Source: a virus
Virus record (IMG/VR): IMGVR_UViG_3300044697_000009
Span: 1-64,000 of that record
Direction: 5' to 3' (one strand)
Length of the DNA: 64,000 nt
The notes below the pieces were generated by a model. That model ran no database searches and was not told the DNA's origin. It worked only from the letters and a program-made list of their open reading frames with translations. How positions within the stretch are numbered: position 1 is the stretch's first letter; every line of letters starts with the position of its first letter. A program made the translations under genes and the position numbers. Below, in pieces: positions 4,815 through 58,499 of the stretch.

Positions 4815-5034
4815 AGTCATCAGTCTTGAAGACATTAAGCAGTCTAAGAAATCTAAAGTAATCGCAGAAGAACTCGATATCTGTATAAACATTCTTAGGC
4901 TAACTATTAAGGGTTTAAGGCTCTTTAGGTATTACTCTCCAATCCAAGACTTATTACCTCAACTTCAAGACACGAAGACTATACTTGAAATCCATAAAAA
5001 CCAACAACTTAATCTGATCGATCATGACGAATGA
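4807..5034 (+). CDS. Hypothetical protein
   Basis: ORF packed in the operon. Confidence 0.55.
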   Translation: MSKVISLEDIKQSKKSKVIAEELDICINILRLTIKGLRLFRYYSPIQDLLPQLQDTKTILEIHKNQQLNLIDHDE

Positions 5035-5135
5035 TGTTGAAGGATTCAATGACCTAGACGCAAGCGAAGGTATTGGAGTATCAACTACCCAAGACTTTAA
5101 CAATAATTGTGATAGGTCTAGAAAAGGATTTAAAA

Positions 5136-6127: not shown

Positions 6128-6156
6128 TTGACTTTTTATATAATATGTGATATAGT
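6128..6156 (+). promoter_or_regulatory. Sigma70-type promoter with TG-rich spacer
   Basis: TTGACT-17nt-TATAGT, TGTG just before the -10. Confidence 0.8.
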
Positions 6157-27801: not shown

Positions 27802-28338
27802 TTAATATGGATTTTCAGATTTCTTTGAGCTACGTTTTTTCTTCAAAGCCATGAGTTTTTCAAGCTTTGCATTTAACTCGTCTTCATCCATATCTTCAGG
27901 CATATCACCTTGCATTTCAGAAGCAGCAGGAGAACCATGTTCTTCATGAGCAGACAAAGCATCATGGACGGTGTTTTCAGCGTCATCAACCATATCATTC
28001 ATTTCTGAATCACTGGTATCATGTTCTGGAACATCGCCGCCTTCACTCATTTGAAGACTATCATCGTCGGAGTTTTGGTCCATAGACATATCGGGACTTT
28101 GATCAGGATTTTCTTCTTGATCAACGACTTGTTTAGCTTTGTCAAGACCGGCTTTCAAGTCCTCAGGACTATCAGCGGCGACAACGGCTTTATGGACTTC
28201 AGGCGAAGCCATTTTGTGATGCATGTGCTGGGCAGCTAAATCTCTTAGATGCGAAACAACATCCATCTTTGCAGCTTTTTCGGCGTCAGAAAGATTTTTC
28301 TTACCTTTCATCACCTTTTCTAGTTTTTCTCGTAACAT
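27802..28338 (-). CDS. Acidic hypothetical virion protein
   Basis: AAGGGAG RBS; contains MSEGGDV motif. Confidence 0.6.
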   Translation of the reverse strand: MLREKLEKVMKGKKNLSDAEKAAKMDVVSHLRDLAAQHMHHKMASPEVHKAVVAADSPEDLKAGLDKAKQVVDQEENPDQSPDMSMDQNSDDDSLQMSEGGDVPEHDTSDSEMNDMVDDAENTVHDALSAHEEHGSPAASEMQGDMPEDMDEDELNAKLEKLMALKKKRSSKKSENPY

Positions 28339-28359
28339 TTTATTCTCCCTTTAGAATAG

Positions 28360-28641
28360 TTACACTTTAAAAAATCGTTTAGTACGATTAAATACTCTTG
28401 GTTTTGGAAGTCCTGCGACTTTAACGGGTTCAATCTTAGGCCCTGCAGGAGGAGTTTGAGTCGGTTGTTCTTGTACACTCATTACTCCAGGTTTTCCATA
28501 AGGCGAAGACGTTGCACCTGGAACTGAAGTCTTAGGAGTAACACCAACACTAGGAATACTAGGTGCTTGATTCCCTATTTTTCCCAATGCTTGTTCTTTT
28601 TCAAAAAATCCTTTACGTTGATTGGGATTCTTAAAACTCAT
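28360..28641 (-). CDS. Small Pro-rich basic protein
   Basis: MSFKNPNQRKGFF resembles the N-terminus of the upstream small protein. Confidence 0.55.
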   Translation of the reverse strand: MSFKNPNQRKGFFEKEQALGKIGNQAPSIPSVGVTPKTSVPGATSSPYGKPGVMSVQEQPTQTPPAGPKIEPVKVAGLPKPRVFNRTKRFFKV

Positions 28642-28809
28642 TTAGCTTCCTTCCCACATTTTCTTCAAACGTTTGAATTTATGAACTTTCTCTGGTAATT
28701 TTTTACCTTTAGAAGCACGATCAAATTCTTTCACTGTTTTAGGTGAGATTTCACCACGTTCTTCTGCGGCATGAAAAAATCTACGTTGGGCATCTGATTT
28801 ATAAGGCAT
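28642..28809 (-). CDS. Small basic protein MPYKSDAQRRFFH... (55 aa, not in ORF track)
   Basis: Hand translation fills the gap exactly between neighbours; MP.KS.AQRR start recurs in small phage late proteins. Confidence 0.7.
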   Translation of the reverse strand: MPYKSDAQRRFFHAAEERGEISPKTVKEFDRASKGKKLPEKVHKFKRLKKMWEGS

Positions 28810-29861
28810 TATCCTACTACCATCCAGCTATCACTGTCGCCGTTATAACACAAAGCAACATGACCATAATTAGAACTTATTACATAACTTGTTGCACCAT
28901 CTATATGATCTGCTTCATAAGGCGTGACTGTAATATGATTAGTGCCAGCATGACCATCTACATCTTTAATTATGTAATACTGTCCTTGTGTTGCGCCTTG
29001 TGGAAGATTAACAGTACACGCTTTACTAGAAGTTGAAATAGCAACTACGTTATCTATGGTTAAACCAACACTTAATGGAGATGCGGATGAATTATAGTTC
29101 TGAACATTTAAATACACTGAATAATTGAATTGACCTGGACCATCAAGAATAATTGCGTTATTTTGATTTCCATTTCCATCAGTGCCAGTGGTGATAATTA
29201 CACTGCCACCGATTGGACCACTAGTACTATTTGTGCTTCCTGCCATAATATTTATATTACCACCATTAGCTGAGTTAGATGTACCAGCCGAAAGACTTAA
29301 TGCAGCTCCTCCAGCTTGATCTGAATTTCCGCAACTAATATTGACACGTCCTGCTTGGCCAGATCCACTAGAAACGCTACCGCCAGAGATGTTTATAGTA
29401 GAAGCATTTCCGCTTCCAGCATTAGCTATGTTTCCGCCTTTGATGTTTATTACTCCAGCATTACCAGTAGATGAAGGATTAAGTAAATCACCAGTTAACA
29501 ACAGGAGTTCAGATGAATCATTAGAAACAGAATTTGTATCTGTAGAACCAATCATTATTAATTGCTGAGATTGGTCGTCATCAGAAACATTACCAATAAA
29601 TGCGCCTGGTCCAGCTGAATTCAGAGTTAATGAAGCTTCAGCTTCTATAGGACTAGGAAGACCACTACCACCACCTGCATCTTGAAAACTAGGATCAACA
29701 TCAGGGCCATTAGATGTCAGGACTTGACCAGATGTTCCTTGGTTAGATGATTGAACTGCAGTCTGAGCATCTTCAAGTGCTGAAACGACAGTATTCGTGT
29801 ACATTGGATCACCACCAAGTACGCTCTGCAGAAGATTAATTATCGTTTGATTAATAGCCAT
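28809..29861 (-). CDS. Tail fibre/spike-like protein
   Basis: GNxGxIxIxGG beta-helix-like repeats; C-terminal module shared with the other fibres. Confidence 0.7.
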   Translation of the reverse strand: MAINQTIINLLQSVLGGDPMYTNTVVSALEDAQTAVQSSNQGTSGQVLTSNGPDVDPSFQDAGGGSGLPSPIEAEASLTLNSAGPGAFIGNVSDDDQSQQLIMIGSTDTNSVSNDSSELLLLTGDLLNPSSTGNAGVINIKGGNIANAGSGNASTINISGGSVSSGSGQAGRVNISCGNSDQAGGAALSLSAGTSNSANGGNINIMAGSTNSTSGPIGGSVIITTGTDGNGNQNNAIILDGPGQFNYSVYLNVQNYNSSASPLSVGLTIDNVVAISTSSKACTVNLPQGATQGQYYIIKDVDGHAGTNHITVTPYEADHIDGATSYVISSNYGHVALCYNGDSDSWMVVG

Positions 29862-29869
29862 ATATTTCC

Positions 29870-31951
29870 TTATAAAATTCTAACAATAGACATTTCAAGA
29901 GCACTACCATATGCTTCGCCTAAACCGATAGAAAATGTTGGTCCACTAGTAACTTGTTGTAACTTCAGAGTCACACTAGATGAAGTACCAGGTGCATAAA
30001 TTCCTGTTATTGTTACTGGAGATCCTCCAGACCCAGAGCCACCACTGACATATACCGACATTGGAGCAGAAACTACATTTGTTCCATCTGTTAGTTGAAA
30101 CGAACACCAACCAGTTCCACCAGTAGATGAAAATGCTAAAAAAGAAACAAAATAAACAGCACTTGAAGATGCTGGTGTAAATGTTATGCCGGGTAAAGAA
30201 CTACCGGCAGCTGAAACAGTTATATTGTTTGATGTTCTTGTATTTAAAGTATCATTACCGCCAGTCAATCCGAAATCAGCATATCCTATAGTAGAACCGC
30301 CAGTCCAAAAATTGGTATGATCGAAGTATCCAGACCAATATGTATTCGTTGGATTAGAAGTTAATGTAGTCAAAAGTTGTGCTTCTGAACCACCAGATGG
30401 TTTTATATAATAATTGTTATCAGACTTTGGATAAATTGCTACATATCCAGAAGGAACTGATGATGGAGTCGTGATTTTGTTGATGGCGATACCACCAGGA
30501 GACTGAGCCTCTATAGTACCGTTACCACCAGTCTGAAGAAGCAAGATTTCATTATTTGAAGCAACAATGCTTATCCCTGAACCACGATCTGAGACTTCAT
30601 TAGTTAATATCGTGTTTTGAAATGTTTTATTACCAGCAAATGTTTGAGCCCCTGTATTAACCATTCCTGGATTGGTAGCTGAAGCACTTTGTGCATAGAG
30701 ATCGTTGCTTACGATTACTAAACCGTTACTTGACGCACTCTGTGAATCAAAAGTTCCAATTGTATTGACACCACTTCCGCCACCACCAGAACTGCCACCA
30801 AATGAATACCAATTCGTACCATCTGAGTAATAAGCCGCAGAACCGTAGTTTGAAGAAATCGTGGCACTAGAAGCACCATCAATTGTTTCTGAACTATGAG
30901 GATCAATAGTAATATTGTGTGTAGCTGAAGCGCCTTTATAGTCTTTTACATAAATTACACGACCTGAAGTAGGACTAGGTAACGTAATAGTCGATACGGC
31001 ACTACTGACATCAACATCCAAGAAATAATCAGTTGTTGAATTATCAACTGAATAACTTCCAGACACGGCATTAGTTGTAAAACGAATTCCACCTAGAAAT
31101 TCATGAACTGCAGTACTACTTGCGGCACCAAGTGTGACTTGACTACTAGTAGAATTACCTAAAACAGTGTTTCCATCAGATGTCAATGCACCAGTAAATG
31201 TTTTACTGCCAGAAAAACTCTGAGTCCCAGTATTGACCAATCCAGGTTCTGTACTAGAAGCAGATTGAGTAGATAATACGTTACTAACAAGGCTTAAACC
31301 ATTTGAGTTCGCGCTCTGTGAATCTAAAGCACCGATACTTGTTGGAACACTTGATATTCCAAGCATTGTGTTGACTTGTGACACTGTCAGGTCACTAGGT
31401 GAGGCTGAACTACCTGTATTATTACCCTTTAAAGTATTGGATGCCATCTGTGAGAGATTTGAATTCCCAACAGTATTAGATGCAAGATTTGCTCCGGTAA
31501 TGCCAGCAGATCCTGAGAGATTTGTATTTGTCAGTCCAGTGATTGTATTACTACCGGCAGCGATTGTTTTATTAGTCAATGTATCTGTAGTATTTCTACC
31601 AACTAATGTATCAGTTGCATCGGGAAGTGTGACTGTACGATTTGCAGTTTGAACGCCAGCGAGAGTTAATTCAGTACCAGTTGTAGCACCAGAAACAGAG
31701 AAATCAATGACCTTTGTCGTATCTGTAGGATCTACGAAATCGGTATTAGAAGCGTCTAAGTCTTTATTTTGCAACCTATTAGCACCTTGATCTGCATGAG
31801 TCTCAGTTACGACTGGAGATGCATTAGTGCCGTTATGAAAATTGATTTTGTTGATTGTGTTTAAGACTTCAATCTCACCTAGTTGACTAACACTTGATGT
31901 AGACACCGGAACGACTTGAAATCCGAACATTAAACGACGTATATTAAGCAT
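29870..31951 (-). CDS. Tail fibre protein
   Basis: Ser/Thr/Gly-rich; internal repeats QSASSTEPGLVNTGTQSF / QSASATNPGMVNTGAQTF. Confidence 0.75.
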   Translation of the reverse strand: MLNIRRLMFGFQVVPVSTSSVSQLGEIEVLNTINKINFHNGTNASPVVTETHADQGANRLQNKDLDASNTDFVDPTDTTKVIDFSVSGATTGTELTLAGVQTANRTVTLPDATDTLVGRNTTDTLTNKTIAAGSNTITGLTNTNLSGSAGITGANLASNTVGNSNLSQMASNTLKGNNTGSSASPSDLTVSQVNTMLGISSVPTSIGALDSQSANSNGLSLVSNVLSTQSASSTEPGLVNTGTQSFSGSKTFTGALTSDGNTVLGNSTSSQVTLGAASSTAVHEFLGGIRFTTNAVSGSYSVDNSTTDYFLDVDVSSAVSTITLPSPTSGRVIYVKDYKGASATHNITIDPHSSETIDGASSATISSNYGSAAYYSDGTNWYSFGGSSGGGGSGVNTIGTFDSQSASSNGLVIVSNDLYAQSASATNPGMVNTGAQTFAGNKTFQNTILTNEVSDRGSGISIVASNNEILLLQTGGNGTIEAQSPGGIAINKITTPSSVPSGYVAIYPKSDNNYYIKPSGGSEAQLLTTLTSNPTNTYWSGYFDHTNFWTGGSTIGYADFGLTGGNDTLNTRTSNNITVSAAGSSLPGITFTPASSSAVYFVSFLAFSSTGGTGWCSFQLTDGTNVVSAPMSVYVSGGSGSGGSPVTITGIYAPGTSSSVTLKLQQVTSGPTFSIGLGEAYGSALEMSIVRIL

Positions 31952-31952
31952 A

Positions 31953-32450
31953 TTAATCCGTAATCAAGAGTGATTTAGCTGTGTAACCAATCGTACCTGA
32001 ATGATTAGATCCAGTAATACTGGTAGATGAGAATTGGACTTGACCCAAGTCTGTAATAGAGAATGTAACGTCTCCGTTGCCCGTATATTCCCTTGACATT
32101 TCCCATTTATTACCAGTAGGATTATTAGGATTGTATATAACTTCTAAAGTCCCAAACTCCGATACTGTCGTAGCACCTGATCCAGTTGTAGATCTATAAA
32201 CAGTGTATTGAACTGCTGCACCTTGTACTGCCGCAACCGGGAAGGCTAAAGCTGGTAAACTAACATTTGTATTAACATTAGCGACCATTGTATAGATTTG
32301 AGGAGGAATATCGTAAGGACCTGCAACTGATGCAAGAGCATCTGCCGTTAATTCAGCGAACTGAGTAATAGCAGGCGCCCAGTTTGGGGAATCAGCAGAT
32401 ACGGGGAATTGTATAGGAGTTCCAGATATAGTAACAGTGATTGGCATCAA
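31953..32450 (-). CDS. Virion structural protein
   Basis: Beta-rich, first gene after the late motif at 32479. Confidence 0.6.
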   Translation of the reverse strand: MMPITVTISGTPIQFPVSADSPNWAPAITQFAELTADALASVAGPYDIPPQIYTMVANVNTNVSLPALAFPVAAVQGAAVQYTVYRSTTGSGATTVSEFGTLEVIYNPNNPTGNKWEMSREYTGNGDVTFSITDLGQVQFSSTSITGSNHSGTIGYTAKSLLITD

Positions 32451-32478
32451 TAACCTATAGTAGAAAAGAGATCTACTA

Positions 32479-32490
32479 TATAGTTATTAA
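32479..32490 (-). promoter_or_regulatory. Putative late promoter TTAATAACTATA
   Basis: Exact copy of the motif. Confidence 0.75.
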
Positions 32491-32492
32491 CT

Positions 32493-33992
32493 TTATGATC
32501 TTTTAGGATAAGGAAAATTTGTCCAGGTTTTTTCTAGTTTCTCGTATTTATTTTTCTTTAATAAAAGCACATACTTACCTTTTTTAGGTTTCTTTTTAAT
32601 CGGTAAGTCCTTGTATTGTAGTCTTGCGTATTCATCAAGGAGTTGTTTCACCTCCAATGGCATAGCCTTCCTGTTTTGAAACCCTCCTTCAGTATTCCAT
32701 TCTGGAAGCCATTCTATACCTAGGTCTTTAGCATATTTTTTCATGCTAGATGTTCTTGTAAAATGCCGTTCAGTTACTTCTTTACCATCTTTAACATAGA
32801 CCTGGGTTGATCCATAGTTTTTACCTAAGTAATCAAAATTACAAGCCTGGTATATAGTTCCTATTTCACCTGCATCAGGATCGCTATAAGCCGTAAATAT
32901 ACGTTTTTCTGTATTATTCACCATCCATCTACAACTAAACATAACTAGCCGTGAGCCTAAATTCTTCGGAGTCCAGCTAGCGCAGGCTCCTCGTTGAATC
33001 AAGGCTTCTAATTTCTTATCGAATTGATAGCTATTAGGCTCAGCTATCATCACGACTCCGCCTAATAACCCGTTGTATCTAGCTGTAAACACGTATCTAA
33101 CGCCAAATCCACAAGTCCCAAGCCATTCGTATCTTTCAATAAACTTTCTATGTTCATCCGTAATCTTTTCTTGAGCTAAAACGAATTCACTAGCTTTTAC
33201 GTTTAAAGGCATTCCATTTTTGATGTCTTCTTTAAGTAGTTGATCTCTCTTAAGTTTTTGCCAACATACATTTTTTGGAAGACTATCTTTTTTAATATTT
33301 CTATTATAGTCGGAAAACTCAGGTTTTAAATTAGTGTAATGACATAATTCGTACATCTGTTGTTCGGTTCTAACTTTAGATAAAGGAATAACGTGATCTA
33401 TATCCCATATTTCACCGTAGTTATCCCAAGTCATATTAGGTTGGAATTGAGACTCCAGATACATTTTAAGTTCTTCTAGAGTACATCCTATGTATTCAGA
33501 AAAATGAGTGTCCTTTTTCCAAGACGTTCGTTTTAATGCGTAATATAACCTATTTCTGAGTCTTCGGCTTAATTTATAGAATAAATCATTTTTTTCTCGA
33601 TCTTTTCTATAAGACCGTCTTTTTATTCTAATTATAGGCTTATTATCATGGTAATATTGTCTAGTTCTTTGTTTTATATTTTCTTTTTTAGATTCATAAT
33701 ATTTTTTAGTATTTATAGATCTGCATTCTTTACATTGTGTACATAATCCATCCGGATTGTTTTTATCTTTAGTAAAGTATTCGGCGGGTTTTTGAATGCC
33801 ACAAGTTCTACAAATTTTTGAAGAAACTGATATAGAATTATTTTTTGGATTATTTAGACGACGAATTCTTTTTTTCTTAGAACCGCAATTTCTGCAATAT
33901 GTTCTATATCCGTCTTTAGTTAAACTATGTTTATTGAATTCACTTATATTATATTCTGTATGACATAATGTACATGTTTTTCGATCAATCAT
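32493..33992 (-). CDS. Fusion: Zn-finger/HNH endonuclease plus Mom-like (GNAT) DNA-modifying domain
   Basis: Two CxxC..CxxC repeats; WDIDHVIPL..CHYTNL..N HNH core; C-terminal PKNLGSRL..AYSDP..G.IGTIYQACNF.YLG, resembling the phage Mu Mom family signature. Confidence 0.75.
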   Translation of the reverse strand: MIDRKTCTLCHTEYNISEFNKHSLTKDGYRTYCRNCGSKKKRIRRLNNPKNNSISVSSKICRTCGIQKPAEYFTKDKNNPDGLCTQCKECRSINTKKYYESKKENIKQRTRQYYHDNKPIIRIKRRSYRKDREKNDLFYKLSRRLRNRLYYALKRTSWKKDTHFSEYIGCTLEELKMYLESQFQPNMTWDNYGEIWDIDHVIPLSKVRTEQQMYELCHYTNLKPEFSDYNRNIKKDSLPKNVCWQKLKRDQLLKEDIKNGMPLNVKASEFVLAQEKITDEHRKFIERYEWLGTCGFGVRYVFTARYNGLLGGVVMIAEPNSYQFDKKLEALIQRGACASWTPKNLGSRLVMFSCRWMVNNTEKRIFTAYSDPDAGEIGTIYQACNFDYLGKNYGSTQVYVKDGKEVTERHFTRTSSMKKYAKDLGIEWLPEWNTEGGFQNRKAMPLEVKQLLDEYARLQYKDLPIKKKPKKGKYVLLLKKNKYEKLEKTWTNFPYPKRS

Positions 33993-33998
33993 ACATAC

Positions 33999-34027
33999 AC
34001 TATATCACAAGTTATATAAAAAGTCAA
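33999..34027 (-). promoter_or_regulatory. Sigma70-type promoter of the HNH/Mom gene (probably leaderless mRNA)
   Basis: TTGACT-17nt-TATAGT; -10 lies 6 nt from the ATG; no RBS. Confidence 0.8.
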
Positions 34028-34049
34028 GTGTTTTTTGCATGAATTATAT

Positions 34050-34077
34050 AAAAAAGAGGGGGCTGTTAACCCCCTCT
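34050..34077 (-). terminator. Rho-independent terminator after the major capsid gene
   Basis: Stem AGAGGGGG/CCCCCTCT followed by a T run on the - strand. Confidence 0.9.
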
Positions 34078-34090
34078 AGATACTGAGGAA

Positions 34091-35332
34091 TTAGGTATTT
34101 ACGATGTTGTTGACCAATACGTTTCTACCTGGGGCCATGCAAAATATCGCCTGATCCGAGTAGAGACGGAGTTCATAGGCTGCAGAGTTTTCCAAATCGC
34201 GGAAAAACTCTTCACCTTGACCAGGTCGTTTAAACGTCATATCAGTTGAACCAACTCGGAACCATTCTTCCATAGCAAGGATATAAGCATAACCTTGTTT
34301 AACGTAGATAGAAGGCTCGATTTCGATCTCACCGTTTTGTGAGAAGAAACGGAGAGCTTTCCCACCGTTTTGGAGTTGAACAGAAGAATACGATTCGTCG
34401 TATCTGCGGAGAGCAGCTTGGTCAGACAGAACGTTTGACCAGGTACGAGGATTCAAGAGAGCCAAGACGTTACCATCGAGACCTTTTTCAACTGCACGAG
34501 CAGTCGCATAGTTCAAGATGTTAAACGAAAGAGCGGAACTTGAAGCGGAATACGTATTACCTTTCCAGAGGTTAAACTGAGCCGCGTTGATATTAAACAA
34601 CGTAGTTTGATTCGTAAGAATCATATGGATACCAGGAAATTCGTTACCATAAGCGCCAGCGTGCCAGATAACGTCGTTAGTCTGAACGCCAGTAGCGTTA
34701 GTTGACAATGTAACGGTTTGAGCCGTCATATCAACAGCGGAAACTGAGAAGTTCCCACGAGATGTCGAACCGTTGCTGGAACGAATCTCAATCGGCATAC
34801 CTTCAGCACCAGCCCAGATACCAGGAGCCCATTCAGACGTAGTGATTGTAAGAACAGCGCCAGACGTACTAGCGATGGTCGCGTAACCAACTTGTCCATA
34901 GAGCATCTCGATTTCGAGCTTTTTAGCCATAGAACGGAGCATGTTGGCAACGAGGAATTTCGTCGCATCCATGAACGCTTTTTGACCACCAAGGGCTGCA
35001 CGAGAAGCAGCGGCATAACCGAGCAGTGAACGAAGCACTACAGGATTACCACGGACTTGAGCATCCTTGATTTGACCAGCGATAGGAGCATTCAAATTGA
35101 AAGCATCTTCATCACTAGCAGCAAAGGTGATACCATGTTCCAGACCCAAGATAACAGGTTGATGGTAAAGGTTACCAGGCTGTTTATCTTTAGACAGGAA
35201 CTTGATTTTATTCATGAGCTTAACTCCATCAGGAATCAGCTCGCCAAGTTTATCAGCGTAGGTTTCTTTGAAGAAACCGTTAAGGGTACCAACCGAGTTA
35301 TTCGGGGTACCAAATGTATTTGCACTCGCCAT
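34091..35332 (-). CDS. Major capsid protein
   Basis: 413 aa after the scaffold; AAGGAG RBS; C-ending codon bias; downstream terminator; HK97-like ending ELRLYSD...PG.N. Confidence 0.85.
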   Translation of the reverse strand: MASANTFGTPNNSVGTLNGFFKETYADKLGELIPDGVKLMNKIKFLSKDKQPGNLYHQPVILGLEHGITFAASDEDAFNLNAPIAGQIKDAQVRGNPVVLRSLLGYAAASRAALGGQKAFMDATKFLVANMLRSMAKKLEIEMLYGQVGYATIASTSGAVLTITTSEWAPGIWAGAEGMPIEIRSSNGSTSRGNFSVSAVDMTAQTVTLSTNATGVQTNDVIWHAGAYGNEFPGIHMILTNQTTLFNINAAQFNLWKGNTYSASSSALSFNILNYATARAVEKGLDGNVLALLNPRTWSNVLSDQAALRRYDESYSSVQLQNGGKALRFFSQNGEIEIEPSIYVKQGYAYILAMEEWFRVGSTDMTFKRPGQGEEFFRDLENSAAYELRLYSDQAIFCMAPGRNVLVNNIVNT

Positions 35333-35350
35333 TTTCTATACTCCTTAAAA

Positions 35351-35830
35351 TTAATAGCTTTCGCCGCTAGAGGTTGCAGGTTCTGTAACGTATTCGACTT
35401 CGACACAGCCGTTAAGAGTGTTTGAAGTAGCGATAGATACAGAAGCTACGCAATCCAACATCATATCGGAACCGTTACTAGCGATAGGACCGCCAGCATC
35501 TTCAGACAATTTGTATAAAACTCCGGTAACGACATCGGCACAACGAAGGCTGACTATCTTTTGTACGGGTTCTCTAATTTTGACCAAAATATTAAAGGTC
35601 CCGGACGAGTCAACGGGTGAAGTGGAATAATTTGCAGTTTCTCCAGAATCCAAAGCGGAAGTGATTTGATCGACACCTTGTGTCCTGATAAACAGGATGG
35701 CAGGTTCGTCACAACTCACTGAAACGCTAGCTGAAGAAGCATTCCCAACGATCACGAAGGGAATTGAGACTTTTTGAACTTTAAGTTGTCTTTGTAACGT
35801 AAGTTCATTACTAGCTTGATATTGAGACAT
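35351..35830 (-). CDS. Head decoration / minor capsid protein
   Basis: Beta-rich; ATG 35830 with AGGAAAG RBS preferred to track start 35905. Confidence 0.55.
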   Translation of the reverse strand: MSQYQASNELTLQRQLKVQKVSIPFVIVGNASSASVSVSCDEPAILFIRTQGVDQITSALDSGETANYSTSPVDSSGTFNILVKIREPVQKIVSLRCADVVTGVLYKLSEDAGGPIASNGSDMMLDCVASVSIATSNTLNGCVEVEYVTEPATSSGESY

Positions 35831-35952
35831 CTTGTCTTTCCTTCTAAAATAGGTTAATACAATGAAATTAAACCCTATTTCTTCCCGTTGGATGTCCACG
35901 CCCAATTAAGGTAACGCAGAGTCTACTAAGCAAATACTTTAGTGCTTACACA

Positions 35953-35964
35953 TATAGTTATTAG
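35953..35964 (-). promoter_or_regulatory. Putative late promoter (CTAATAACTATA) of the capsid operon
   Basis: One mismatch to the motif. Confidence 0.72.
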
Positions 35965-36027
35965 AAATTATATAATATTTTGGTATATTTTTTGCTTACC
36001 ATAGGATTATATAATGATTCTGAGGAT

Positions 36028-36933
36028 TTACACCCCAAAAAAGGTTTTGAAATTTACTTTCTTACCAGTTTCTTTAGGTTCTGCTTTTTTACCAACATCG
36101 AGAGTTTTGTTGGAACCAACGGCGACTTTTTCTTTCGCCCTAGCAACATTTTTCTTTCTAATGCTGTTAATTTTGTCCTTACCAACAAGTTTCTCTACGA
36201 CTTCATCAGGCATTACCTGAAACATGGACTTTAAGTCTTCCATTACTTCTTCACGAACCAATGGAATAACGTCTTCTGGGAGGACGTCTTTACCATTTTG
36301 AAGCCCAACAAGCATATAATCTGCAATCTTTTTAACTATATACGGGGATTTAGGAAGATCAGTTTTTTGAAGTGCTTGATCCATAAGGATGTCATAACGT
36401 TCATATTGTTCTTCTGTAAGTCTTTGTTTTTGTTCTTCTAATGCAGCTTGCTTTTCTCTTTCACGTTCTTCTTTTAAGGCTTTAAGCTCAGCTTCAAGTT
36501 TTTCTTTAGCAAGTTGTTCAGGAGATTTCTTAGAGTCAGCAATTTCTTTCTCAATGATATCAGCTGCTAGTTTTTTAACATCTAGACCGATATGAGGGTC
36601 TGAAAGAACACGAGCTGGATCTTTTCGTAAATCTTCAATGAATTTAACTACTTCCTTTTGAAGACTTGAGAATTCTTCCATCCGTTTACCAGCGACTTTT
36701 GCCATCTGGAGTTGACGAGTGATGTATTCATCGTCATTTGGATCGAATTCTTCCTCGAATTCTTCACCGTCGACTTTGAGTTTAAATTTTCTTTTAGAAG
36801 GTGTGGAAGATTGAGCTGGTTTAGTCTGAGCTTGAGTTTCCTGAGTAGTTTCAGGGGTTTCAGCCGCAGTGTCTTGTGTTTCAATACTATCTGTTGCTTC
36901 TGGCGCCGCAGGAGCGGCTTGATCTTGTGCCAT
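36028..36933 (-). CDS. Capsid scaffolding protein
   Basis: Acidic disordered N-terminus, FKLKVDGEE motif, charged coiled coils, upstream of capsid. Confidence 0.8.
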   Translation of the reverse strand: MAQDQAAPAAPEATDSIETQDTAAETPETTQETQAQTKPAQSSTPSKRKFKLKVDGEEFEEEFDPNDDEYITRQLQMAKVAGKRMEEFSSLQKEVVKFIEDLRKDPARVLSDPHIGLDVKKLAADIIEKEIADSKKSPEQLAKEKLEAELKALKEEREREKQAALEEQKQRLTEEQYERYDILMDQALQKTDLPKSPYIVKKIADYMLVGLQNGKDVLPEDVIPLVREEVMEDLKSMFQVMPDEVVEKLVGKDKINSIRKKNVARAKEKVAVGSNKTLDVGKKAEPKETGKKVNFKTFFGV

Positions 36934-37015
36934 GGTTTAATTCCTTTCGTCCCGTCCATTGGATAGGGAGAATAATACCGTCCCGAAATTGGGATAGGTC
37001 AATAATTCTAGAGAG

Positions 37016-37243
37016 TTATACGGCTACACCTTTTTTACCTTTGATATTCAGATACGATTTATCCTTTAAAGCCTTCATTGGGTCTTGAGAAGCCTTAGCT
37101 TCGGCAGTAGCTTTGCCAGGATTGATTAAATCTTGTACCCTAGTGAATTTCTTAGGTTTTTCTTTCTCTTTTTTCTTACTTGAATCACTATAAGTTTCTT
37201 TCATGTCAGGTAACAAACCGTTAAAAGTGTTTATGGATGCCAT
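37016..37243 (-). CDS. Small basic protein with capsid-like N-terminus
   Basis: MASINTFNG...KETYSD vs capsid MASANTF...NGFFKETYAD; own late motif and AGGA RBS. Confidence 0.65.
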   Translation of the reverse strand: MASINTFNGLLPDMKETYSDSSKKKEKEKPKKFTRVQDLINPGKATAEAKASQDPMKALKDKSYLNIKGKKGVAV

Positions 37244-37265
37244 ATATAATAATTCCTGTCTGTAA

Positions 37266-37277
37266 TATAGTTATTAA
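37266..37277 (-). promoter_or_regulatory. Putative late promoter TTAATAACTATA
   Basis: Exact copy of the motif. Confidence 0.75.
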
Positions 37278-37393
37278 AACTAAAGCAATCGTGAATAGTT
37301 TTAATCTTTTATGTCTTTTGATGTATTTATCTTGTTTTATATTCAAAGTATGATGAGATTTTTGTGGATTCGAATTAAATATGATTTTACCCA

Positions 37394-37744
37394 TTATAAA
37401 TTACCTACTGCTTGAATAATTTGGTTTTTCATGTATTGAATTCTGTCTGGAGTTAAATAAGGTGACATTTGTGGAGTTATTTCAACATAACTCAATGCAT
37501 CAAACGCCAACCAAAGAAGCCCTTGACTTCCATAAAGATTTACTTCTTGTAGAGCTAATTCTATTTCATTTGCAATTGTTGAACTCATGCCCATAGCCAT
37601 GTTTTCAGCACCAAATTGTTGTACCATTCCAGTCCATGCGGCTTGTGCTTCTTGAACTTTTTCTAATGCCGTGTTGTATTGTGTTTGATTCAAATTAAAG
37701 TATGTAGGATTTCCATTATATCCGCACGCCATTTCATTCCTCAT
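37394..37744 (-). CDS. Hypothetical protein, possible fibre assembly chaperone
   Basis: Follows the Gly-rich genes. Confidence 0.5.
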   Translation of the reverse strand: MRNEMACGYNGNPTYFNLNQTQYNTALEKVQEAQAAWTGMVQQFGAENMAMGMSSTIANEIELALQEVNLYGSQGLLWLAFDALSYVEITPQMSPYLTPDRIQYMKNQIIQAVGNL

Positions 37745-38726
37745 ATTCTATTACAACTAAACCAGGAGATCCTGAACCACCATTTCCCGCATTGCCTCCA
37801 GCTCCACCACCTGCAGTACCGGCGCCACCTCCGCCACCTCCTCCGCCACCACCACCACCACGTCCTCCAACTCCAGCTGTACCAGATGTCGCATTAGTAC
37901 CAGTACCTCCTGTACCAGATGCTACTCCAGTTCCACCATTACCACCATTTCCAGCATTACCACCTGAAGGAGAAGGTAAATTTCCTAATGTAAATTCATC
38001 TCCAATACCACCTACACCGCCTGCACCACCTCCGCCTCCACCACCAGAAGAACTATTTCCAGTTCCACCTGTACCAGCTGTACCAACTACAGGAGCAGTA
38101 AATGAATTTCCATAAAAAAAACTACTACTAGCAGGAGTTGCTGGAGTTCCGCCATTATTACCACTTGCTCCTGTAGAACTAGCGCCACCAGCTCCAGATC
38201 CAGAAGCTGCTGTTTGTGAACTAGGTGTATATAACAAACCATAACTTGTTGATGCCGCAGCTCCGCCTATACCCCCGGCACCTCCAACTGATGCGGATGA
38301 TGCTATTAAACCTCTAGTGCCATTACTACCACCTGTTCCACCTAATGTTGTAGATACAAGTCCAACGATTGCCGATAATCCACCTTGACCACCTGAACTC
38401 CCATTTGTTCCATCGGCTGGAGTACTTGCTCCTCCAGTTCCTGCAGTTCCACCACTACCACCGGAACCGACAGTAATTGTATATGTTGTACCAGGAGTAA
38501 CAGCTAATGAAACTTCTATAAATGAAGTTGGCCCACCTCCACCTCCACCATTTCCACCGCCTCCACCACCGCGATTTGTATTTATTTGACTTCCCGCACC
38601 ACCACCACCTCCACCTCCACCACCAGCTCCTGGACGTAAGAAAGCTTTTATACACGTTACTCCCGCAGGACATGTCCACGTTCCTGATGTAATAAATGTT
38701 TCATATATTTTTCTTGTTTGAGGCAT
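37734..38726 (-). CDS. Glycine-rich tail/adhesin protein, paralog 3
   Basis: FITSGTWTCPAGV...GAGGGGGG...GSPGLVVIEY. Confidence 0.75.
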   Translation of the reverse strand: MPQTRKIYETFITSGTWTCPAGVTCIKAFLRPGAGGGGGGGGGAGSQINTNRGGGGGGNGGGGGGPTSFIEVSLAVTPGTTYTITVGSGGSGGTAGTGGASTPADGTNGSSGGQGGLSAIVGLVSTTLGGTGGSNGTRGLIASSASVGGAGGIGGAAASTSYGLLYTPSSQTAASGSGAGGASSTGASGNNGGTPATPASSSFFYGNSFTAPVVGTAGTGGTGNSSSGGGGGGGAGGVGGIGDEFTLGNLPSPSGGNAGNGGNGGTGVASGTGGTGTNATSGTAGVGGRGGGGGGGGGGGGAGTAGGGAGGNAGNGGSGSPGLVVIEYEE

Positions 38727-39724
38727 TACTCAGTCCATTCAATAACTATTAAACCAGAAGACCCATTTCCACCAGCACCACCAGAACCTCCAGCACCACC
38801 AGATACTAATCCCGCACCACCACCGCCACCGCCGCCTCCTGAACCGCCACCACGTCCTCCAGTTCCGTTTCCACCAGATGAACCATTTGTTGCAGCACTA
38901 GCAGTTGCAGTACTTCCACTAGTTCCATTTCCGCCGGCTCCGCCGTTTCCACCGGAAGGTGCCGATTGTCCATAAACTGAATATTCATCAGCTGTCGCAC
39001 CACCACTTCCTCCACCGCCAGCACCTCCTCCCCCATATAAGCTACTAGAACCTGTTCCGTTAGTGCCTCGTAATCCATTTGTTGAATTAGCGTTAATATA
39101 TATGAAATATGAATTTGTTGTTCCTGGTGTTCCACTTGTTCCAGCTCCACCATTTCCACCAGTTGAACTCCCCCCTACGCCACCAGCAGCTCCAGGTCTA
39201 GCAGTACCAGAAGTTAAAACTCCAACACCAAATGATGTGCCCGCTGTACCAACTGCACCAACTGCTCCTCCAGAACTAGAAGTACCAGGATTTCCTGGAC
39301 CTCCGCCGCCTCCTGGGTATCCGCCAACTGCGTATATTCCATAAGGAATTCCTAAAGTAATTAAATTTCCAAAAGATGATATACCACCAAATCCTCCAGA
39401 ATTTCCAGTAGTACCAATATTACCAGCAGAACCTCCATTAGCGGCAGATCCACCTGAACCACCAGCTCCGATTGTTACTGTATATGTAGTTCCAGGGACA
39501 ACTGTTAATGGGAAATACCAACCAGATGCAGCACCACCAGAACCTCCAGAAGAACCACCTGCGCCGCCTCCTCCTGCTCCAGTGTAACCTCCACCTCCTC
39601 CACCGCCACTACCACCTCCACCAGCTCCTGGTCTTATATAAATTCTAATATTTTCAACACCAGCCGGTGCTGTCCAAGTTCCACTTGTTGTAAATATTTG
39701 AGAAACTTTTCTAGATTGAGACAT
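38726..39724 (-). CDS. Glycine-rich tail/adhesin protein, paralog 2
   Basis: FTTSGTWTAPAGV...GSSGLIVIEW. Confidence 0.75.
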   Translation of the reverse strand: MSQSRKVSQIFTTSGTWTAPAGVENIRIYIRPGAGGGGSGGGGGGGYTGAGGGGAGGSSGGSGGAASGWYFPLTVVPGTTYTVTIGAGGSGGSAANGGSAGNIGTTGNSGGFGGISSFGNLITLGIPYGIYAVGGYPGGGGGPGNPGTSSSGGAVGAVGTAGTSFGVGVLTSGTARPGAAGGVGGSSTGGNGGAGTSGTPGTTNSYFIYINANSTNGLRGTNGTGSSSLYGGGGAGGGGSGGATADEYSVYGQSAPSGGNGGAGGNGTSGSTATASAATNGSSGGNGTGGRGGGSGGGGGGGGAGLVSGGAGGSGGAGGNGSSGLIVIEWTE

Positions 39725-39978
39725 TACCCATTACCATTAACTATAATAGTTCCATCGGGAGAAGTATAAGTATCTGGATTTGGATATATAGGAGGTAGAT
39801 ATGACCAACCGATTTGTGGTATACAGCTAACTCCATTTAAAGTTAAATTATCTATTCTATTTACGTAATCGAAATTTTCTCCACCTAATGGATTAACAAA
39901 GAATAAATCAAGTATTGAATCATCATCTAATTCAAATACATTAACAATAAAACCTTGTGAAATTTGCGCGTATGTCAT
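39724..39978 (-). CDS. Small protein, possible adhesin partner or chaperone
   Basis: YAQI..G.IVNV...IGWSY pattern often seen beside Gly-rich fibre genes. Confidence 0.55.
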   Translation of the reverse strand: MTYAQISQGFIVNVFELDDDSILDLFFVNPLGGENFDYVNRIDNLTLNGVSCIPQIGWSYLPPIYPNPDTYTSPDGTIIVNGNG

Positions 39979-40958
39979 TATTCAATCCATTCTATAACTA
40001 ACAATCCATTACTTCCTTGCGATCCTGCGGCACCATTTCCACCACTTCCACCAGTTGTACCGCCAGCTCCGCCACCACCGCCTCCTCCACCACCAGCACC
40101 ACCTCTACCGCCAGTTGGTTGAGAACCAGGATTTGTACCAGATACGCCATTTGAACCTGTAGTTAAACTTGCATTTCCACCATTACCACCGTTACCAGCT
40201 GTCCCACCTGTTGGAGCGCCAACTCCATAGACATTGTATTCATCACCATTTGAAGCAGTGCCACCAGCGCCGCCAGCGCCACCACCACCGTTTGTTGATA
40301 TTCCGGTGCCACCTGTTCCCGAAGTTGCTAATGTTGGTATAGAATTTATTGGAGAAAAAAATATATTAGCGGCAGGAGTTCCTACCGTTCCACCATTACT
40401 GCCATTAGCACCTGTATCAGAACCACCTGCTCCACCGGAAGAACCATTAGCACCAAGACCAGGTAATAGTCCATATACGCCACCATTTGAAGCCACACCG
40501 CCTCCAGTTCCTCCCGTTGTTGAAGTTCCTGCACCGCCTAAATGACTAGCCAAACCACCATTTCCTCCTCCAGTTATATTATTTTGACCAGCAGAAATTA
40601 AAGATCCAAGACTTGTTATTCCACCATTACCACCGGCAGATCCTGCAGTTCCAGGATTTCCAGCAGAACCTCCAGTTCCAGCTGTTCCGCCTGAACCCCC
40701 AGAACCAACTGTAACCGTGTATGAAGTTCCTGGAGTAACCATTAAAGATGTATAAAATCCAGAAGCCGCTCCTCCAGATGATCCTCCACTTCCGCCTCCT
40801 CCACCACCGCCAGATGAGCCCGAATATCCTCCCCCACCACCTGCACCACCTCCGCCACCTCCGGCGCCAGGTCTGATGTAAACTCTTACACTAGTAACGC
40901 CAGCAGGAGCCACCCATGTACCAGAAGTTATGAAAGTTGTAAAAAGTTTACGACTCAT
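39978..40958 (-). CDS. Glycine-rich tail/adhesin protein, paralog 1
   Basis: FITSGTWVAPAGV...GSNGLLVIEW. Confidence 0.75.
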   Translation of the reverse strand: MSRKLFTTFITSGTWVAPAGVTSVRVYIRPGAGGGGGGAGGGGGYSGSSGGGGGGGSGGSSGGAASGFYTSLMVTPGTSYTVTVGSGGSGGTAGTGGSAGNPGTAGSAGGNGGITSLGSLISAGQNNITGGGNGGLASHLGGAGTSTTGGTGGGVASNGGVYGLLPGLGANGSSGGAGGSDTGANGSNGGTVGTPAANIFFSPINSIPTLATSGTGGTGISTNGGGGAGGAGGTASNGDEYNVYGVGAPTGGTAGNGGNGGNASLTTGSNGVSGTNPGSQPTGGRGGAGGGGGGGGGAGGTTGGSGGNGAAGSQGSNGLLVIEWIE

Positions 40959-55145: not shown

Positions 55146-55218
55146 AGTCCCGTAGCTCAATGGTTAGAGCAGGCTCTTTATAAGGGTCAGGTTGCTGGTT
55201 CGAGTCCAGCCGGGACTA
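55146..55218 (+). tRNA. tRNA-Ile(UAU)
   Basis: Acceptor AGTCCCG/CGGGACT; D arm GCTC/GAGC; anticodon loop TT-TAT-AA; T arm GCTGG-TTCGAGT-CCAGC; discriminator A; no encoded CCA. Confidence 0.9.
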
Positions 55219-57380: not shown

Positions 57381-58499
57381 ATGAACGAAAAGATTTCAAA
57401 AGCAAAAGCATTGCTGGTACTTGATCAACCGTTTTTCGCAAGTCTCCTTTTGACGATGCCGATTCATGAAGACAAAAAGATTACTACAATGGCAACAAAC
57501 GGCGATTGGATCAAGTTTAACCCAGAATTCGTTGATAAATTATCGATTCAAGAACTTATCTTTGTCCTAGCGCATGAAACAATGCACTGCGTTTTCCAGC
57601 ACATGCTTAGACGTGGGGATAAAAACCATAATAAATACAATATTGCGGGGGATTATGTCATTAACGATCATTTGATTCGCGAACATGTAGGCGAAATGCC
57701 TCATGGCGGACTTCATAACCCCCAGTTAGTACAAGAAGGCAATGGGACGACTGAAGGCGTTTATGCCTTATTACCTAAGGAAGACGAACAAAAAACAGCG
57801 GGCAACATGGGTCAAGGTGGAAGCATGGATGAAGTCGAGTCCGATGACTTGACCCAGGCAGAAGCAAATCAAAAGTCTGAAGAAATGCGAGTCAAGGTTA
57901 TTCAGGCAAAGAACGCGGCTAAGACGTGTGGCAAATTCTCAGCAGGCCTTGAGAGACTCGTTAATGATTTAACCCGCCCTAGAATTGACTGGAGAACAGT
58001 ATTGAGACGATTCTTAAGCGATCGGGCAAAAGTTGATCTGAGTTATGCAAAACCTAAGCGGCGTTTCATGGCCGACGACGTAAACCTGCCAAGTCTGTTA
58101 GGTGAGCAGTTAGGTGAAATCGTCATTGCAGTTGATTGTTCAGGCAGTATTGATGACAAACTTCTAAACGAGTTTGGTACTGAAATTTCAAGTATCAAAG
58201 AAGACACAAAACCAGTGAAAGTCCACGTAATTTATTTTGATTCTGAAGTCCTAAGGCATGATGAATTCTCAAGAGACGACGACCTTCGCATCAACGCATG
58301 CGGTGGCGGTGGGACGGCATTCTCACCCGTGTTTAGATATATCCAAAACAAAAACATTAGCCCTGTGGCATGTGTATTTTTGACTGATCTTCAGTGCAAT
58401 GACTTCGGTCAAACACCGAGTTACAATGTAATGTGGGCATCGACTGACAATGGCAATGCGCCGTTTGGTGAAATCTTATTATTGAAAGATGCCGCATGA
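57381..58499 (+). CDS. Metallopeptidase (HExxH) plus vWA domain protein (DUF2201-like)
   Basis: T.ATNG, LAHETMH...H..R, NIAGDYVIN; MIDAS VDCSGS, GGGGTAF, FLTD. Confidence 0.9.
   Translation: MNEKISKAKALLVLDQPFFASLLLTMPIHEDKKITTMATNGDWIKFNPEFVDKLSIQELIFVLAHETMHCVFQHMLRRGDKNHNKYNIAGDYVINDHLIREHVGEMPHGGLHNPQLVQEGNGTTEGVYALLPKEDEQKTAGNMGQGGSMDEVESDDLTQAEANQKSEEMRVKVIQAKNAAKTCGKFSAGLERLVNDLTRPRIDWRTVLRRFLSDRAKVDLSYAKPKRRFMADDVNLPSLLGEQLGEIVIAVDCSGSIDDKLLNEFGTEISSIKEDTKPVKVHVIYFDSEVLRHDEFSRDDDLRINACGGGGTAFSPVFRYIQNKNISPVACVFLTDLQCNDFGQTPSYNVMWASTDNGNAPFGEILLLKDAA

Follow-up and report, generated by a model that had tools for sequence, protein, structure and literature searches.

A putative mobile cassette encoding a zinc-ribbon HNH domain fused to a Mom-family domain downstream of a phage major capsid gene

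The window analysed here is a 64-kb stretch of an 85,261-bp virus record with direct terminal repeats, and we describe the region between its major capsid protein gene and the next structural gene (Table 1). A preliminary description of this DNA had proposed that a single 499-aa ORF joins zinc-finger and HNH motifs to a Mom-like motif, that it lies right after the capsid terminator, that it has its own sigma-70 promoter, and that a late motif follows directly on its stop codon. The ORF and both motifs are present as described, and each of the flanking elements can be located. The terminator-like hairpin at the left edge of the cassette sits just past the capsid stop at 34091, and consists of a stem of 10 pairs (6 of them G-C), a loop of 3, and a run of TTTTTT. 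The promoter (TTGACT-17-TATAGT, with the TG of an extended minus-10) ends 7 nt ahead of the ATG, and because of this spacing a leaderless start of the fusion gene is plausible. A generic promoter scan yields no more sites than chance (10 versus 10.5 expected), although the pattern TTGAC-N14-17-TGNTATAGT is found four times in the window against 0.01 expected; a near-twin of the promoter at 6128-6156 on the plus strand differs at 3 of 29 positions (counted by hand). At the right edge the motif TAATAACTATA is directly 3' of the fusion stop. It is over-represented in the window, with seven exact copies – five of which are upstream of minus-strand genes – and 16 copies at one mismatch or fewer compared with 3.6 expected, and in relatives with an empty slot its equivalent, TTAACAACTATA, is found after the capsid terminator and before the next gene. 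With its own terminator, an early-class promoter, and a late motif beyond the stop, the insertion has the self-contained organization previously suggested. The GC content of the 5' half of the fusion gene is 0.26-0.33, compared with 0.41-0.485 in the capsid gene. The product of the downstream flanking gene has no match in Pfam or PHROG.

Two metatranscriptome runs hold 28-30% of the sampled words, and the contigs fall mainly within the capsid gene, with one piece of 136 nt inside the fusion gene (33526-33661) and another covering 32253-32454, where the following gene has its 5' end. These RNA contigs show no levels, ends or strands and could include DNA carry-over, a lack of coverage carries no meaning, and the RNA evidence is thin.

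Table 1. Features at the capsid-downstream locus, listed in the direction of transcription; coordinates are those of the 64-kb window.
Feature	Coordinates	Strand	Evidence
Major capsid protein gene, 413 aa, upstream flank	34091..35332	-	phrog_14242 (major head protein), E 4.5e-15
Intrinsic-terminator-like hairpin and T-run, cassette left edge	34055..34077	-	relatives compared
Sigma-70-type promoter, extended minus-10, early class	33999..34027	-	pattern scan
HNH-Mom fusion ORF, 499 aa (stop codon inside coordinates)	32493..33992	-	ORF call, relatives, AlphaFold2 model
Zinc ribbon 1, residues 7-36, C7/C10/C33/C36	33885..33974	-	Cys invariant in A1
Zinc ribbon 2 (second copy), residues 61-90, C61/C64/C87/C90	33723..33812	-	
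Four long helices with basic YYxxNKE-type repeats, residues 88-156	33525..33731	-	DSSP on models
HNH / beta-beta-alpha-Me core, residues ~190-235, D199/H200/N221/N230/K234	33288..33425	-	
Mom-family GNAT domain, residues 243-499	32496..33266	-	PF25680, phrog_1384, Foldseek, hhalign
Late-promoter-like motif TAATAACTATA, cassette right edge, precedes next structural gene	32479..32489	-	
Downstream flanking gene, 165 aa, no family	31953..32450	-	

The HNH-Mom fusion is genuine and conserved. There is no internal stop in the ORF, and a database search identifies 746 relatives at E<=1e-5; in 88 of the best 120 of these (the query counted, and the number taken by hand from the table of best-scoring relatives) the match extends over at least 85% of the query, with identities of 37-72%. 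Loci L004-L007 each encode the fusion as a single ORF. The AlphaFold2 model of the full-length protein has a pLDDT of 95.3 and a pTM of 0.79, and confidence stays high over the HNH/Mom junction. Comparison of positions 28000-40000 with 50,697 phage records by megablast gave zero matches, no tblastn match in phage records spans 80% or more of the fusion, and it is unmatched in the NCBIfam and PADLOC libraries.

Judged from its sequence, the N-terminal half is composed of two zinc ribbons and an HNH (beta-beta-alpha-Me) domain with predicted nuclease activity. Both ribbons are of the CxxC...CxxC type, and in an alignment of 32 sequences (A1) C7, C10, C33, C36, D199, H200 and N221 are invariant, with N230 conserved in at least 90%; C33, C36, D199, H200 and N221 are also invariant in an alignment of 75 free-standing relatives (A3). 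The HNH motif (D199-H200...N221...N230) coincides with a core that is modeled as strands 196-200 and 222-226 and helix 227-234. Two ribbons are present in a minority of A1 (P0001, P0002 and P0009, from alignment blocks read by eye), and matches to phrog_1035, phrog_2255 and phrog_2633 begin at residues 52-58. The four long helices (H88-101, H103-116, H118-135 and H137-156 by DSSP) carry basic repeats whose consensus is present in both alignments, and may have a role in DNA binding. The HNH half matches phrog_1035 (endonuclease VII; E 2.6e-20), phrog_2340 (E 6.2e-14) and phrog_2255 (E 4.5e-9), but the N-terminal half matches no Pfam HNH model at E<=0.05, and no NCBIfam or PADLOC model. Ribbon 1 has a sequence match to the N-terminal ribbon of the restriction enzyme Hpy99I (E 0.06-0.08), which is also the top solved-structure match to the N-terminal half (PDB 3fc3; Foldseek E 2e-3); in the same search T4 endonuclease VII and Cas9 HNH domains score E>0.7 only. 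A match of residues 2-112 to phrog_5558 ('Lar-like restriction alleviation') covers the zinc-ribbon region alone, and we take it to reflect ribbon similarity and not function. Free-standing homologues of the N-terminal half have the same D-H...N...N motif, and among 120 listed free-standing relatives (132-420 aa; counted by hand) just six contain PF25680 and 114 do not.

The C-terminal half was previously described as Mom-like, and profile and fold searches agree in identifying it as a Mom-family GNAT domain, which is predicted to modify DNA and to counter restriction. PF25680 (Mom) matches residues 341-422 at 44.6 bits (cut-off 27.1), and the motif originally noted, AYSDP..GTIYQACNF.YLG, is within this match at residues 368-390. 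There is a further match to phrog_1384 (residues 280-498, E 5.2e-20), and Foldseek ranks 1 and 2 are chains A and B of phage Mu Mom (8bv8; E 3.5e-9 and 1.1e-8), with target TM scores of 0.61-0.65 and 15-17% identity in the fold alignment; generic GNATs trail these, starting at E 1e-4. Alignment to Mu Mom by hhalign (probability 91%, E 9.5e-7) pairs R334, S347, D371 and Y381 with Mu Mom R111, S124, D149 and Y159 respectively, and across 103 sequences S347, D371 and Y381 do not vary and R334 is kept in at least 90%. Silva et al. 2026 (PMC13219725) describe Mu Mom as a tRNA-dependent adenine N6 modification enzyme, in which R111, S124, D149 and Y159 are essential or important and the R151A substitution leaves activity not detectable. 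An equivalent of R151 is lacking in the fusion, where the aligned position, D373, is variable in A1 (D, E, M, S, T and others). The fusion also seems to have an invariant E289-W290 where Mu Mom has the H58-Y59 pair, judged from a by-eye match of 'RYEW' to the canonical Mom 'K(W/Y)HY' that lies beyond the supported hhalign stretch, where the global alignment is unreliable. Given these two departures, the chemistry or the substrate may differ from those of Mu Mom. In the model, a helical insertion (~408-461), recognized by its secondary structure alone, places helices 408-412, 414-423 and 446-461 between strands 404-406 and 465-477, and the C-terminal PYPK(R) tail aligns with the C-terminus of Mu Mom. 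Mom proteins of this clade are also free-standing, as in a 290-aa protein of Vibrio phage 501E54-1, and a BFVD fold search with the Mom half recovers proteins of about 400-710 aa named 'endonuclease-like' or 'putative homing endonuclease', including those of Pseudomonas phage PA5oct and Campylobacter phage CP21.

Relatives of the capsid protein are present in viral contigs in 57 stretches representing 55 distinct loci (53-79% identity), and a homologue of the 165-aa downstream gene is found in 43 of the 55. The occupancy of the slot between them was a comparison that the preliminary description had called for, and it is patchy: in 39 related phages the slot is empty in 11 (several of which are near-duplicates) and occupied in 28, with endonucleases of several unrelated families among the occupants. 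Homing-endonuclease-type genes account for 24 of the 28 occupied slots, with eight each of the HNH, GIY-YIG, and phrog_3339/DUF7487 types. Three of the HNH-type slots contain fusions to Mom, and the HNH family is present without any Mom at five of the 39 loci; one of the GIY-YIG slots has a fusion to a different Mom. Nuclease and Mom are also seen as overlapping genes, and in the split two-gene HNH and Mom forms at L008, L009 and L014 a complete separate HNH gene is kept. Other arrangements are more varied. L010 (332 aa) has a zinc ribbon alone before Mom and P0070 has an HTH_23 domain in that position, and in L098 the Mom profile match ends at position 149 of 202 and is followed by a GIY-YIG endonuclease with DNA-binding motifs. 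Mom has been joined independently to a PF01844 HNH, to DUF7487 together with an MTES_1575 restriction-endonuclease domain, and to GIY-YIG. The HNH protein gp43 of Geobacillus phage PK3.6, encoded by a gene overlapping a canonical Mom gene, is a PF01844 HNH that is unrelated to the one described here (hhalign probability 0.8%). Relatives also occur on two contigs of phage size assigned to Bacteroidales MAGs by binning or by name; the binning of phage contigs is unreliable.

Two pairs of closely related phages bear on the mobility of the cassette. In 100-nt windows the flanks of L008 and L009 show 95-100% identity (mostly 100%), along 2.8 kb on the upstream side and 1.9 kb on the downstream side. 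Their HNH and Mom cassettes are just 67-89% identical where they can be aligned, and the boundaries at the slot are sharp. The sequence comparison indicates that HNH+Mom cassettes have been swapped between these near-identical phages. L108, with an empty slot, and L136, with HNH only, differ by six substitutions in 2 kb of otherwise identical sequence; all six are in the last 14 capsid codons beside the insert and are synonymous (codons read by eye). Their divergence begins 6 nt past the capsid stop, and the terminator is therefore part of the exchanged segment in this pair. A near-identical empty partner was found for none of the HNH-Mom loci, so the homing signature holds for the HNH-only relative, which is about 35% identical to the HNH of the window, and not for the copy in the window itself. 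Capsid and Mom identities roughly track one another over eight loci, which is also consistent with largely vertical descent and occasional losses.

We propose, with a probability of about 0.55, that the ORF forms a mobile cassette, made by fusion of an HNH homing endonuclease, free-standing in origin, with a DNA-modifying enzyme of the Mom family. In a co-infection, the HNH half would cut the DNA of relatives that lack the cassette, close to the capsid gene's 3' end, and the cassette would be copied in as the break is repaired by recombination. The Mom half would acylate adenine N6 in double-stranded phage DNA post-replication, probably with an aminoacyl-tRNA as donor by analogy with Mu Mom, and the modification would blunt host restriction, a benefit that could retain the cassette in the phage; fusion would let the two functions travel together. 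The transfer expected of a Mom-family enzyme is that of glycine, taken from Gly-tRNA, to adenine N6 of dsDNA. The preliminary description had left a choice between a homing endonuclease with an anti-restriction cargo and a cut-and-protect module similar to restriction-modification. We favor homing because the slot is a hot spot, the HNH family occurs there without Mom, and the cassette has been exchanged between near-identical phages.

In the cut-and-protect alternative, Mom marks the phage's own DNA, and any host or co-infecting phage DNA that lacks the mark is cut by the HNH nuclease, as predicted for fusions of Mom with restriction-endonuclease-fold nucleases in jumbo phages by Iyer, Anantharaman, Krishnan, Burroughs and Aravind 2021 (PMC7824862). 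The location of nuclease and modification domains in one polypeptide or in overlapping genes is consistent with this, and the early-class promoter would suit action ahead of replication. Mom has also come together repeatedly, and independently, with HNH, GIY-YIG, and restriction-endonuclease/DUF7487 nucleases, which may exceed chance hitch-hiking, the association with at least four nuclease types perhaps pointing to functional coupling. However, the large majority of the listed free-standing relatives lack Mom, as do the five HNH-family loci in this same slot, which indicates that the nuclease is tolerated without protection and weakens the alternative. The HNH-only element shows immunity based on sequence, in the form of clustered silent changes, and not a need for modification, and Mom of this clade also occurs alone, as in the Vibrio phage. 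We consider cut-and-protect possible but unlikely. One version of it, in which Mom-marked virion DNA is immune and early HNH cuts unmarked co-infecting relatives and perhaps the host, is more doubtful. If true, modification-gated homing would make the cassette a gene drive that resembles restriction-modification but is encoded in one gene, carrying DNA hypermodification into phage populations, and the repeated joining of Mom to homing nucleases of the HNH, GIY-YIG, and DUF7487/restriction-endonuclease types would be its footprint.

Slightly less probable again is that the N-terminal half plays no independent part in homing or restriction and serves Mom mainly as a module for DNA binding or targeting, or as a helper that nicks. 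The zinc ribbons and long basic helices do resemble DNA-binding parts, the shorter forms L010 and P0070 retain just a zinc ribbon or an HTH before Mom, and in L098 the Mom profile match stops early, with DNA-binding motifs in the adjacent GIY-YIG endonuclease. Against this, the catalytic D-H, N and N residues are invariant or nearly so in the fused forms, the split forms have a complete separate HNH gene, and Mom retains its own helical insertion and C-terminal tail. Finally, the concern raised at the outset that a sequencing error might have produced the fusion can be extended to any frameshift or assembly error, or to a gene in decay, and could draw on the split two-gene relatives. We regard such an artefact as very improbable and largely refuted by the dozens of independent fused relatives with both halves conserved, and by the model confidence across the junction. 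A DNA contig of 85,048 bases from a public run matches the window with 0 differences, but it may be the source sample and is therefore not independent support.

Mom-type adenine hypermodification has been explained recently, and for one enzyme only, that of phage Mu. The Mom clade described here is abundant in metagenomes, differs at residues that are important in Mu, and is tied to homing nucleases. If the homing interpretation is correct, the cassette represents a route of horizontal spread for anti-restriction DNA modification among phages, riding on a selfish nuclease; it would also be a small, naturally occurring combination of a site-directed nuclease and a DNA-modifying domain. The slot downstream of the capsid gene, where endonuclease cargoes vary and near-identical filled and empty pairs exist, offers a natural system for the study of intron-less homing.

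The N-terminal half resembles Hpy99I, a beta-beta-alpha-Me type II restriction endonuclease, in its fold match and its CxxC...CxxC ribbon, although the fold match is a weak one (TM about 0.2) and in sequence only the ribbon is matched. The C-terminal half shares with Mu Mom the GNAT fold, the motif S-x-D...G-x-x-Y-Q-A-x-N-F-D-(F/Y)-(I/L)-G, the equivalents of R111, S124, D149 and Y159, a helical insertion before the last strand, and the PYPK tail; it differs in its longer insertion and in the attached nuclease. The expression also differs, as the fusion has an early-type promoter whereas Mu mom is expressed late under Com/Dam control (a Com annotation was found).

As a genetic element, the cassette is similar to the T4 seg/mob-type genes, which are free-standing phage homing endonuclease genes, in its intergenic insertion by a conserved gene, its own promoter, its patchy presence in relatives, and the silent-site polymorphism beside the insert. 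Unlike these, it has an entire second enzyme domain as its cargo, and its cleavage site and homing are putative. A literature search found no description of an HNH-Mom fusion, and the supplements of Silva et al. 2026 may contain fused forms. A published parallel is with the Mom and restriction-endonuclease-fold DNase fusions predicted in jumbo phages (Iyer et al. 2021), which likewise combine a Mom-family and an endonuclease domain in one polypeptide; the BFVD matches to the Mom half, among them those from PA5oct and CP21, are proteins of this kind. The nuclease here is instead a zinc-ribbon HNH, the phage is 85 kb and not jumbo, and the hot spot, cassette exchange, and HNH-only alleles point to homing over restriction. 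Nuclease-Mom fusions are already published for jumbo phages, and the zinc-ribbon HNH-Mom at a homing-endonuclease hot spot is a variant of them.

The 499-aa HNH-Mom fusion is real and conserved. Searching a large protein collection at E≤1e-5 recovers 746 relatives; of the best 120 (query included), 88 align over at least 85% of the query with 37-72% identity (manual count), and most are 476-505 aa long. An artefact, including the sequencing error raised in the preliminary description as a possible origin of the fusion, is essentially excluded. The whole fusion reaches at least 80% coverage in none of the 113 matching records of sequenced, named phages. Seven loci recovered by searching from the Mom side have HNH and Mom adjoining a capsid homologue; the two form one ORF in L004-L007 and separate ORFs in L008, L009 and L014 (the contigs of L004, L005 and L006 are also listed as L132, L084 and L138). 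At the same position downstream of the capsid gene, a 188-aa HNH gene in L008 and L009 overlaps by 4 nt a Mom gene of 254-259 aa, which begins at the conserved CWQK motif; the two ORFs of L014 are 224 and 340 aa long. In a different phage lineage, L011 and L012 encode a 573-575-aa HTH-ribbon-HNH-Mom protein after a 462-463-aa ORF; in L011, the one of the two scanned, this ORF (phrog_752) encodes an unrelated major head protein.

Features of the fusion locus and of other regions of the window
Feature	Position	Strand	Remarks
HNH-Mom fusion ORF, 499 aa	32493..33992	-	between major capsid gene and 165-aa gene
Major capsid gene	34091..35332	-	phrog_14242
165-aa gene, structural region	31953..32450	-	other flank of fusion ORF
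Strong terminator-like hairpin with T-run	34077-34055	-	after capsid stop
Promoter TTGACT-17-TATAGT, extended-minus-10 TG	34027-33999	-	next after hairpin
Late motif TAATAACTATA	32489-32479	-	directly 3' of fusion-ORF stop
A+T-rich inverted repeat TATAGTAGA ... TCTACTATA, loop 7	32451-32492	-	overlapped by late motif; just ahead of downstream gene's start
Second, unrelated HNH endonuclease gene	57381-58499	+	phrog_1314, E 6.6e-96; replication region
tRNA-Ile gene, anticodon TAT	55146-55218	+	sole tRNA gene in window

The window covers the first 64 kb of a virus record that is 85,261 bp long and bounded by direct terminal repeats. The fusion ORF, capsid terminator, promoter and late motif are all as first described from the sequence. 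The fusion gene has a GC content of 0.26-0.33 over its 5' half, versus 0.41-0.485 for the capsid gene. The ATG stands 7 nt past the promoter without a Shine-Dalgarno sequence, and a leaderless start, which would fit this spacing, is plausible. A generic promoter scan of the window gave 10 sites for 10.5 expected, not above chance; the specific pattern TTGAC-N14-17-TGNTATAGT occurs four times for 0.01 expected, and another copy, at 6128, differs from the cassette promoter at 3 of 29 positions (manual count). Because of this excess and the near-twin, we read the cassette promoter as belonging to the phage's host-type (early) class. The late motif has seven exact copies in the window (4718 on the plus strand; 20537, 32479, 35953, 37266, 48973 and 52819 on the minus strand); five of these lie ahead of genes on the minus strand. 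Allowing one mismatch raises the count to 16, versus 3.6 expected. Relatives carry TTAACAACTATA at equivalent places, and the motif is probably a phage-specific late promoter.

The N-terminal half contains two CxxC...CxxC ribbons, four long basic helices and a beta-beta-alpha element bearing D199-H200, N221 and N230. Support for its assignment as a nuclease is mixed: PHROG endonuclease VII and HNH families match (phrog_1035, E 2.6e-20), Pfam, NCBIfam and PADLOC give no match, and the top fold match, the beta-beta-alpha-Me restriction enzyme Hpy99I, is weak (E 2e-3, TM about 0.2). Free-standing relatives of about 180-290 aa are plentiful (32-57% identity), and a Mom domain is present in 6 of 120 HNH-half relatives among the matches listed (manual count). 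As had been proposed, the C-terminal half, from about residue 243 to 499, is a member of the Mom family: Pfam PF25680 matches residues 341-422 at 44.6 bits (cut-off 27.1), phrog_1384 (Mom-like) spans residues 280-498, and a model of the whole product built on 103 relatives (pLDDT 95.3, pTM 0.79) finds phage Mu Mom (8bv8) as its best solved structure (E 3.5e-9, target TM 0.61-0.65), followed by ordinary GNAT acetyltransferases. Mom proteins of the same clade also occur without a nuclease, as in Vibrio phage 501E54-1, which has one of 290 aa (43% identity). Bdellovibrionota and Bacteriovoracaceae MAGs (L141-L172) often carry such domains lacking the HNH half, some on megabase contigs; these are possibly cellular or prophage copies.

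The capsid protein as query recovered 55 loci in viral contigs (53-79% identity), 43 of which have both flanking genes. We surveyed the slot between these genes in 39 loci, having dropped L089, L109, L121 and L137 (capsid 3' ends 96-100% identical to retained loci); representatives were typed by PHROG and Pfam and the others by BLASTP against them. The slot is empty (88-181 nt) in 11 loci, several of them near-duplicates of one another. It otherwise holds an HNH of the window's family, either alone (three loci) or with other ORFs (two), the HNH-Mom fusion (three), a GIY-YIG endonuclease (seven), a Mom-GIY-YIG fusion of opposite order (one, L098), a phrog_3339/DUF7487-type 'homing endonuclease' of about 460-480 aa (eight), an unknown protein of about 280 aa (three) or small ORFs only (one). 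Presence or absence in relatives, proposed earlier as a check, thus identifies the slot as a homing-endonuclease hot spot. In empty slots the capsid stop is followed by the terminator, the TTAACAACTATA motif and the next gene, and inserts therefore fall between terminator and late promoter. Slot proteins of ~276-295 aa in four relatives (L100:6371-7258, L102, L103 and L123:3934-4797) have no PHROG or Pfam match and could represent a homing endonuclease not yet described, or other cargo. In many relatives (L105, L108, L136 (about 4195-5001); L111; L122; L126; and others) the capsid gene is itself interrupted: the codons for residues 1-57 lie about 800 nt upstream of those from residue 58 on, and in L111 and L126 the N-terminal part is split into two or three pieces that lie apart. 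This suggests introns or inteins; the capsid gene of the window is uninterrupted.

Compared in 100-nt windows, the flanks of L008 and L009 share 95-100% identity, in most windows 100%, along 2.8 kb upstream (capsid gene included) and about 1.9 kb downstream, whereas a sharp-edged block containing HNH, Mom and a small ORF (L008 about 4300-5900) shows 67-89% in alignable windows and less at gaps; the capsid, Mom and HNH proteins are 99%, 83% and 70% identical. Across 2 kb the empty locus L108 and the HNH-only locus L136 differ by just six substitutions, all synonymous (manual codon reading) and in the last 14 capsid codons beside the insert, and identity resumes just ahead of the late motif. This would be expected of a homing endonuclease targeting the end of the capsid gene, but the L136 HNH is only about 35% identical to the window's, and the pattern is the relative's rather than the window copy's. 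No near-identical empty partner of any HNH-Mom locus was found among the loci compared. In a comparison of eight loci, divergence is much faster in the HNH half than in Mom (window versus L005: capsid 78%, Mom 68%, HNH 39%), which suggests module swapping.

The preliminary description had left two readings side by side, and slot context and block exchange favour a mobile homing-endonuclease unit with Mom as cargo (probability roughly 0.55), because the nuclease family bears homing hallmarks and occupies the slot with or without Mom, HNH and Mom are swapped as one block, and either half can stand alone. The other, that nuclease and Mom form a restriction-modification-like module, draws on the repeated, independent joining of Mom to nucleases. 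This Mom clade is joined to a PF01844/HNH_5 nuclease (P0261), to DUF7487 plus an MTES_1575 restriction-endonuclease domain (P0083), and to DUF7487 in proteins of 700-816 aa (P0265-P0276). The 448-aa slot protein of L098 (2972-4318, plus strand), with an N-terminal canonical Mom (PF25680, E 6e-33, profile positions 1-149 of 202) that appears to lack the helical insertion of Mom and a GIY-YIG homing endonuclease with NUMOD3 and zinc-ribbon motifs, is, judged from sequence, an independent fusion in reversed order. Iyer et al. 2021 (PMC7824862) predict that the restriction-endonuclease-fold nucleases joined to Mom in jumbo phages act as a restriction component, and BFVD viral proteins whose Mom-like part matches our model are named 'endonuclease-like' or 'putative homing endonuclease'. 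However, the nuclease is tolerated without Mom, which weakens the restriction-modification-like reading, and we consider it less likely. That the HNH half serves purely in DNA targeting is unlikely, because its catalytic motif is invariant. The literature searched describes neither an HNH-Mom fusion nor Mom as cargo of a homing endonuclease, the reading we prefer.

Silva et al. 2026 (PMC13219725) show that Mu Mom takes glycine from Gly-tRNA(Gly) and attaches it to N6 of adenine in double-stranded DNA, and report R111, S124 and R151 to be essential and D149, Y159, H58 and Y59 to be important. Alignment of the Mom half by hhalign to the sequence from the Mu record pairs R334 with R111, S347 with S124, D371 with D149 and Y381 with Y159. 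Across the 103 relatives each of these four is either invariant or conserved in at least 90%, and a C-terminal PYPK tail is common to the Mom half and Mu Mom. However, the R151 position is a variable D/E, and H58-Y59 seemingly corresponds to an invariant E289-W290 in a stretch aligned by eye only. These differences identify the Mom half, at the sequence level, as a distinct clade of the Mom family, and its donor and target may not be those of Mu Mom.
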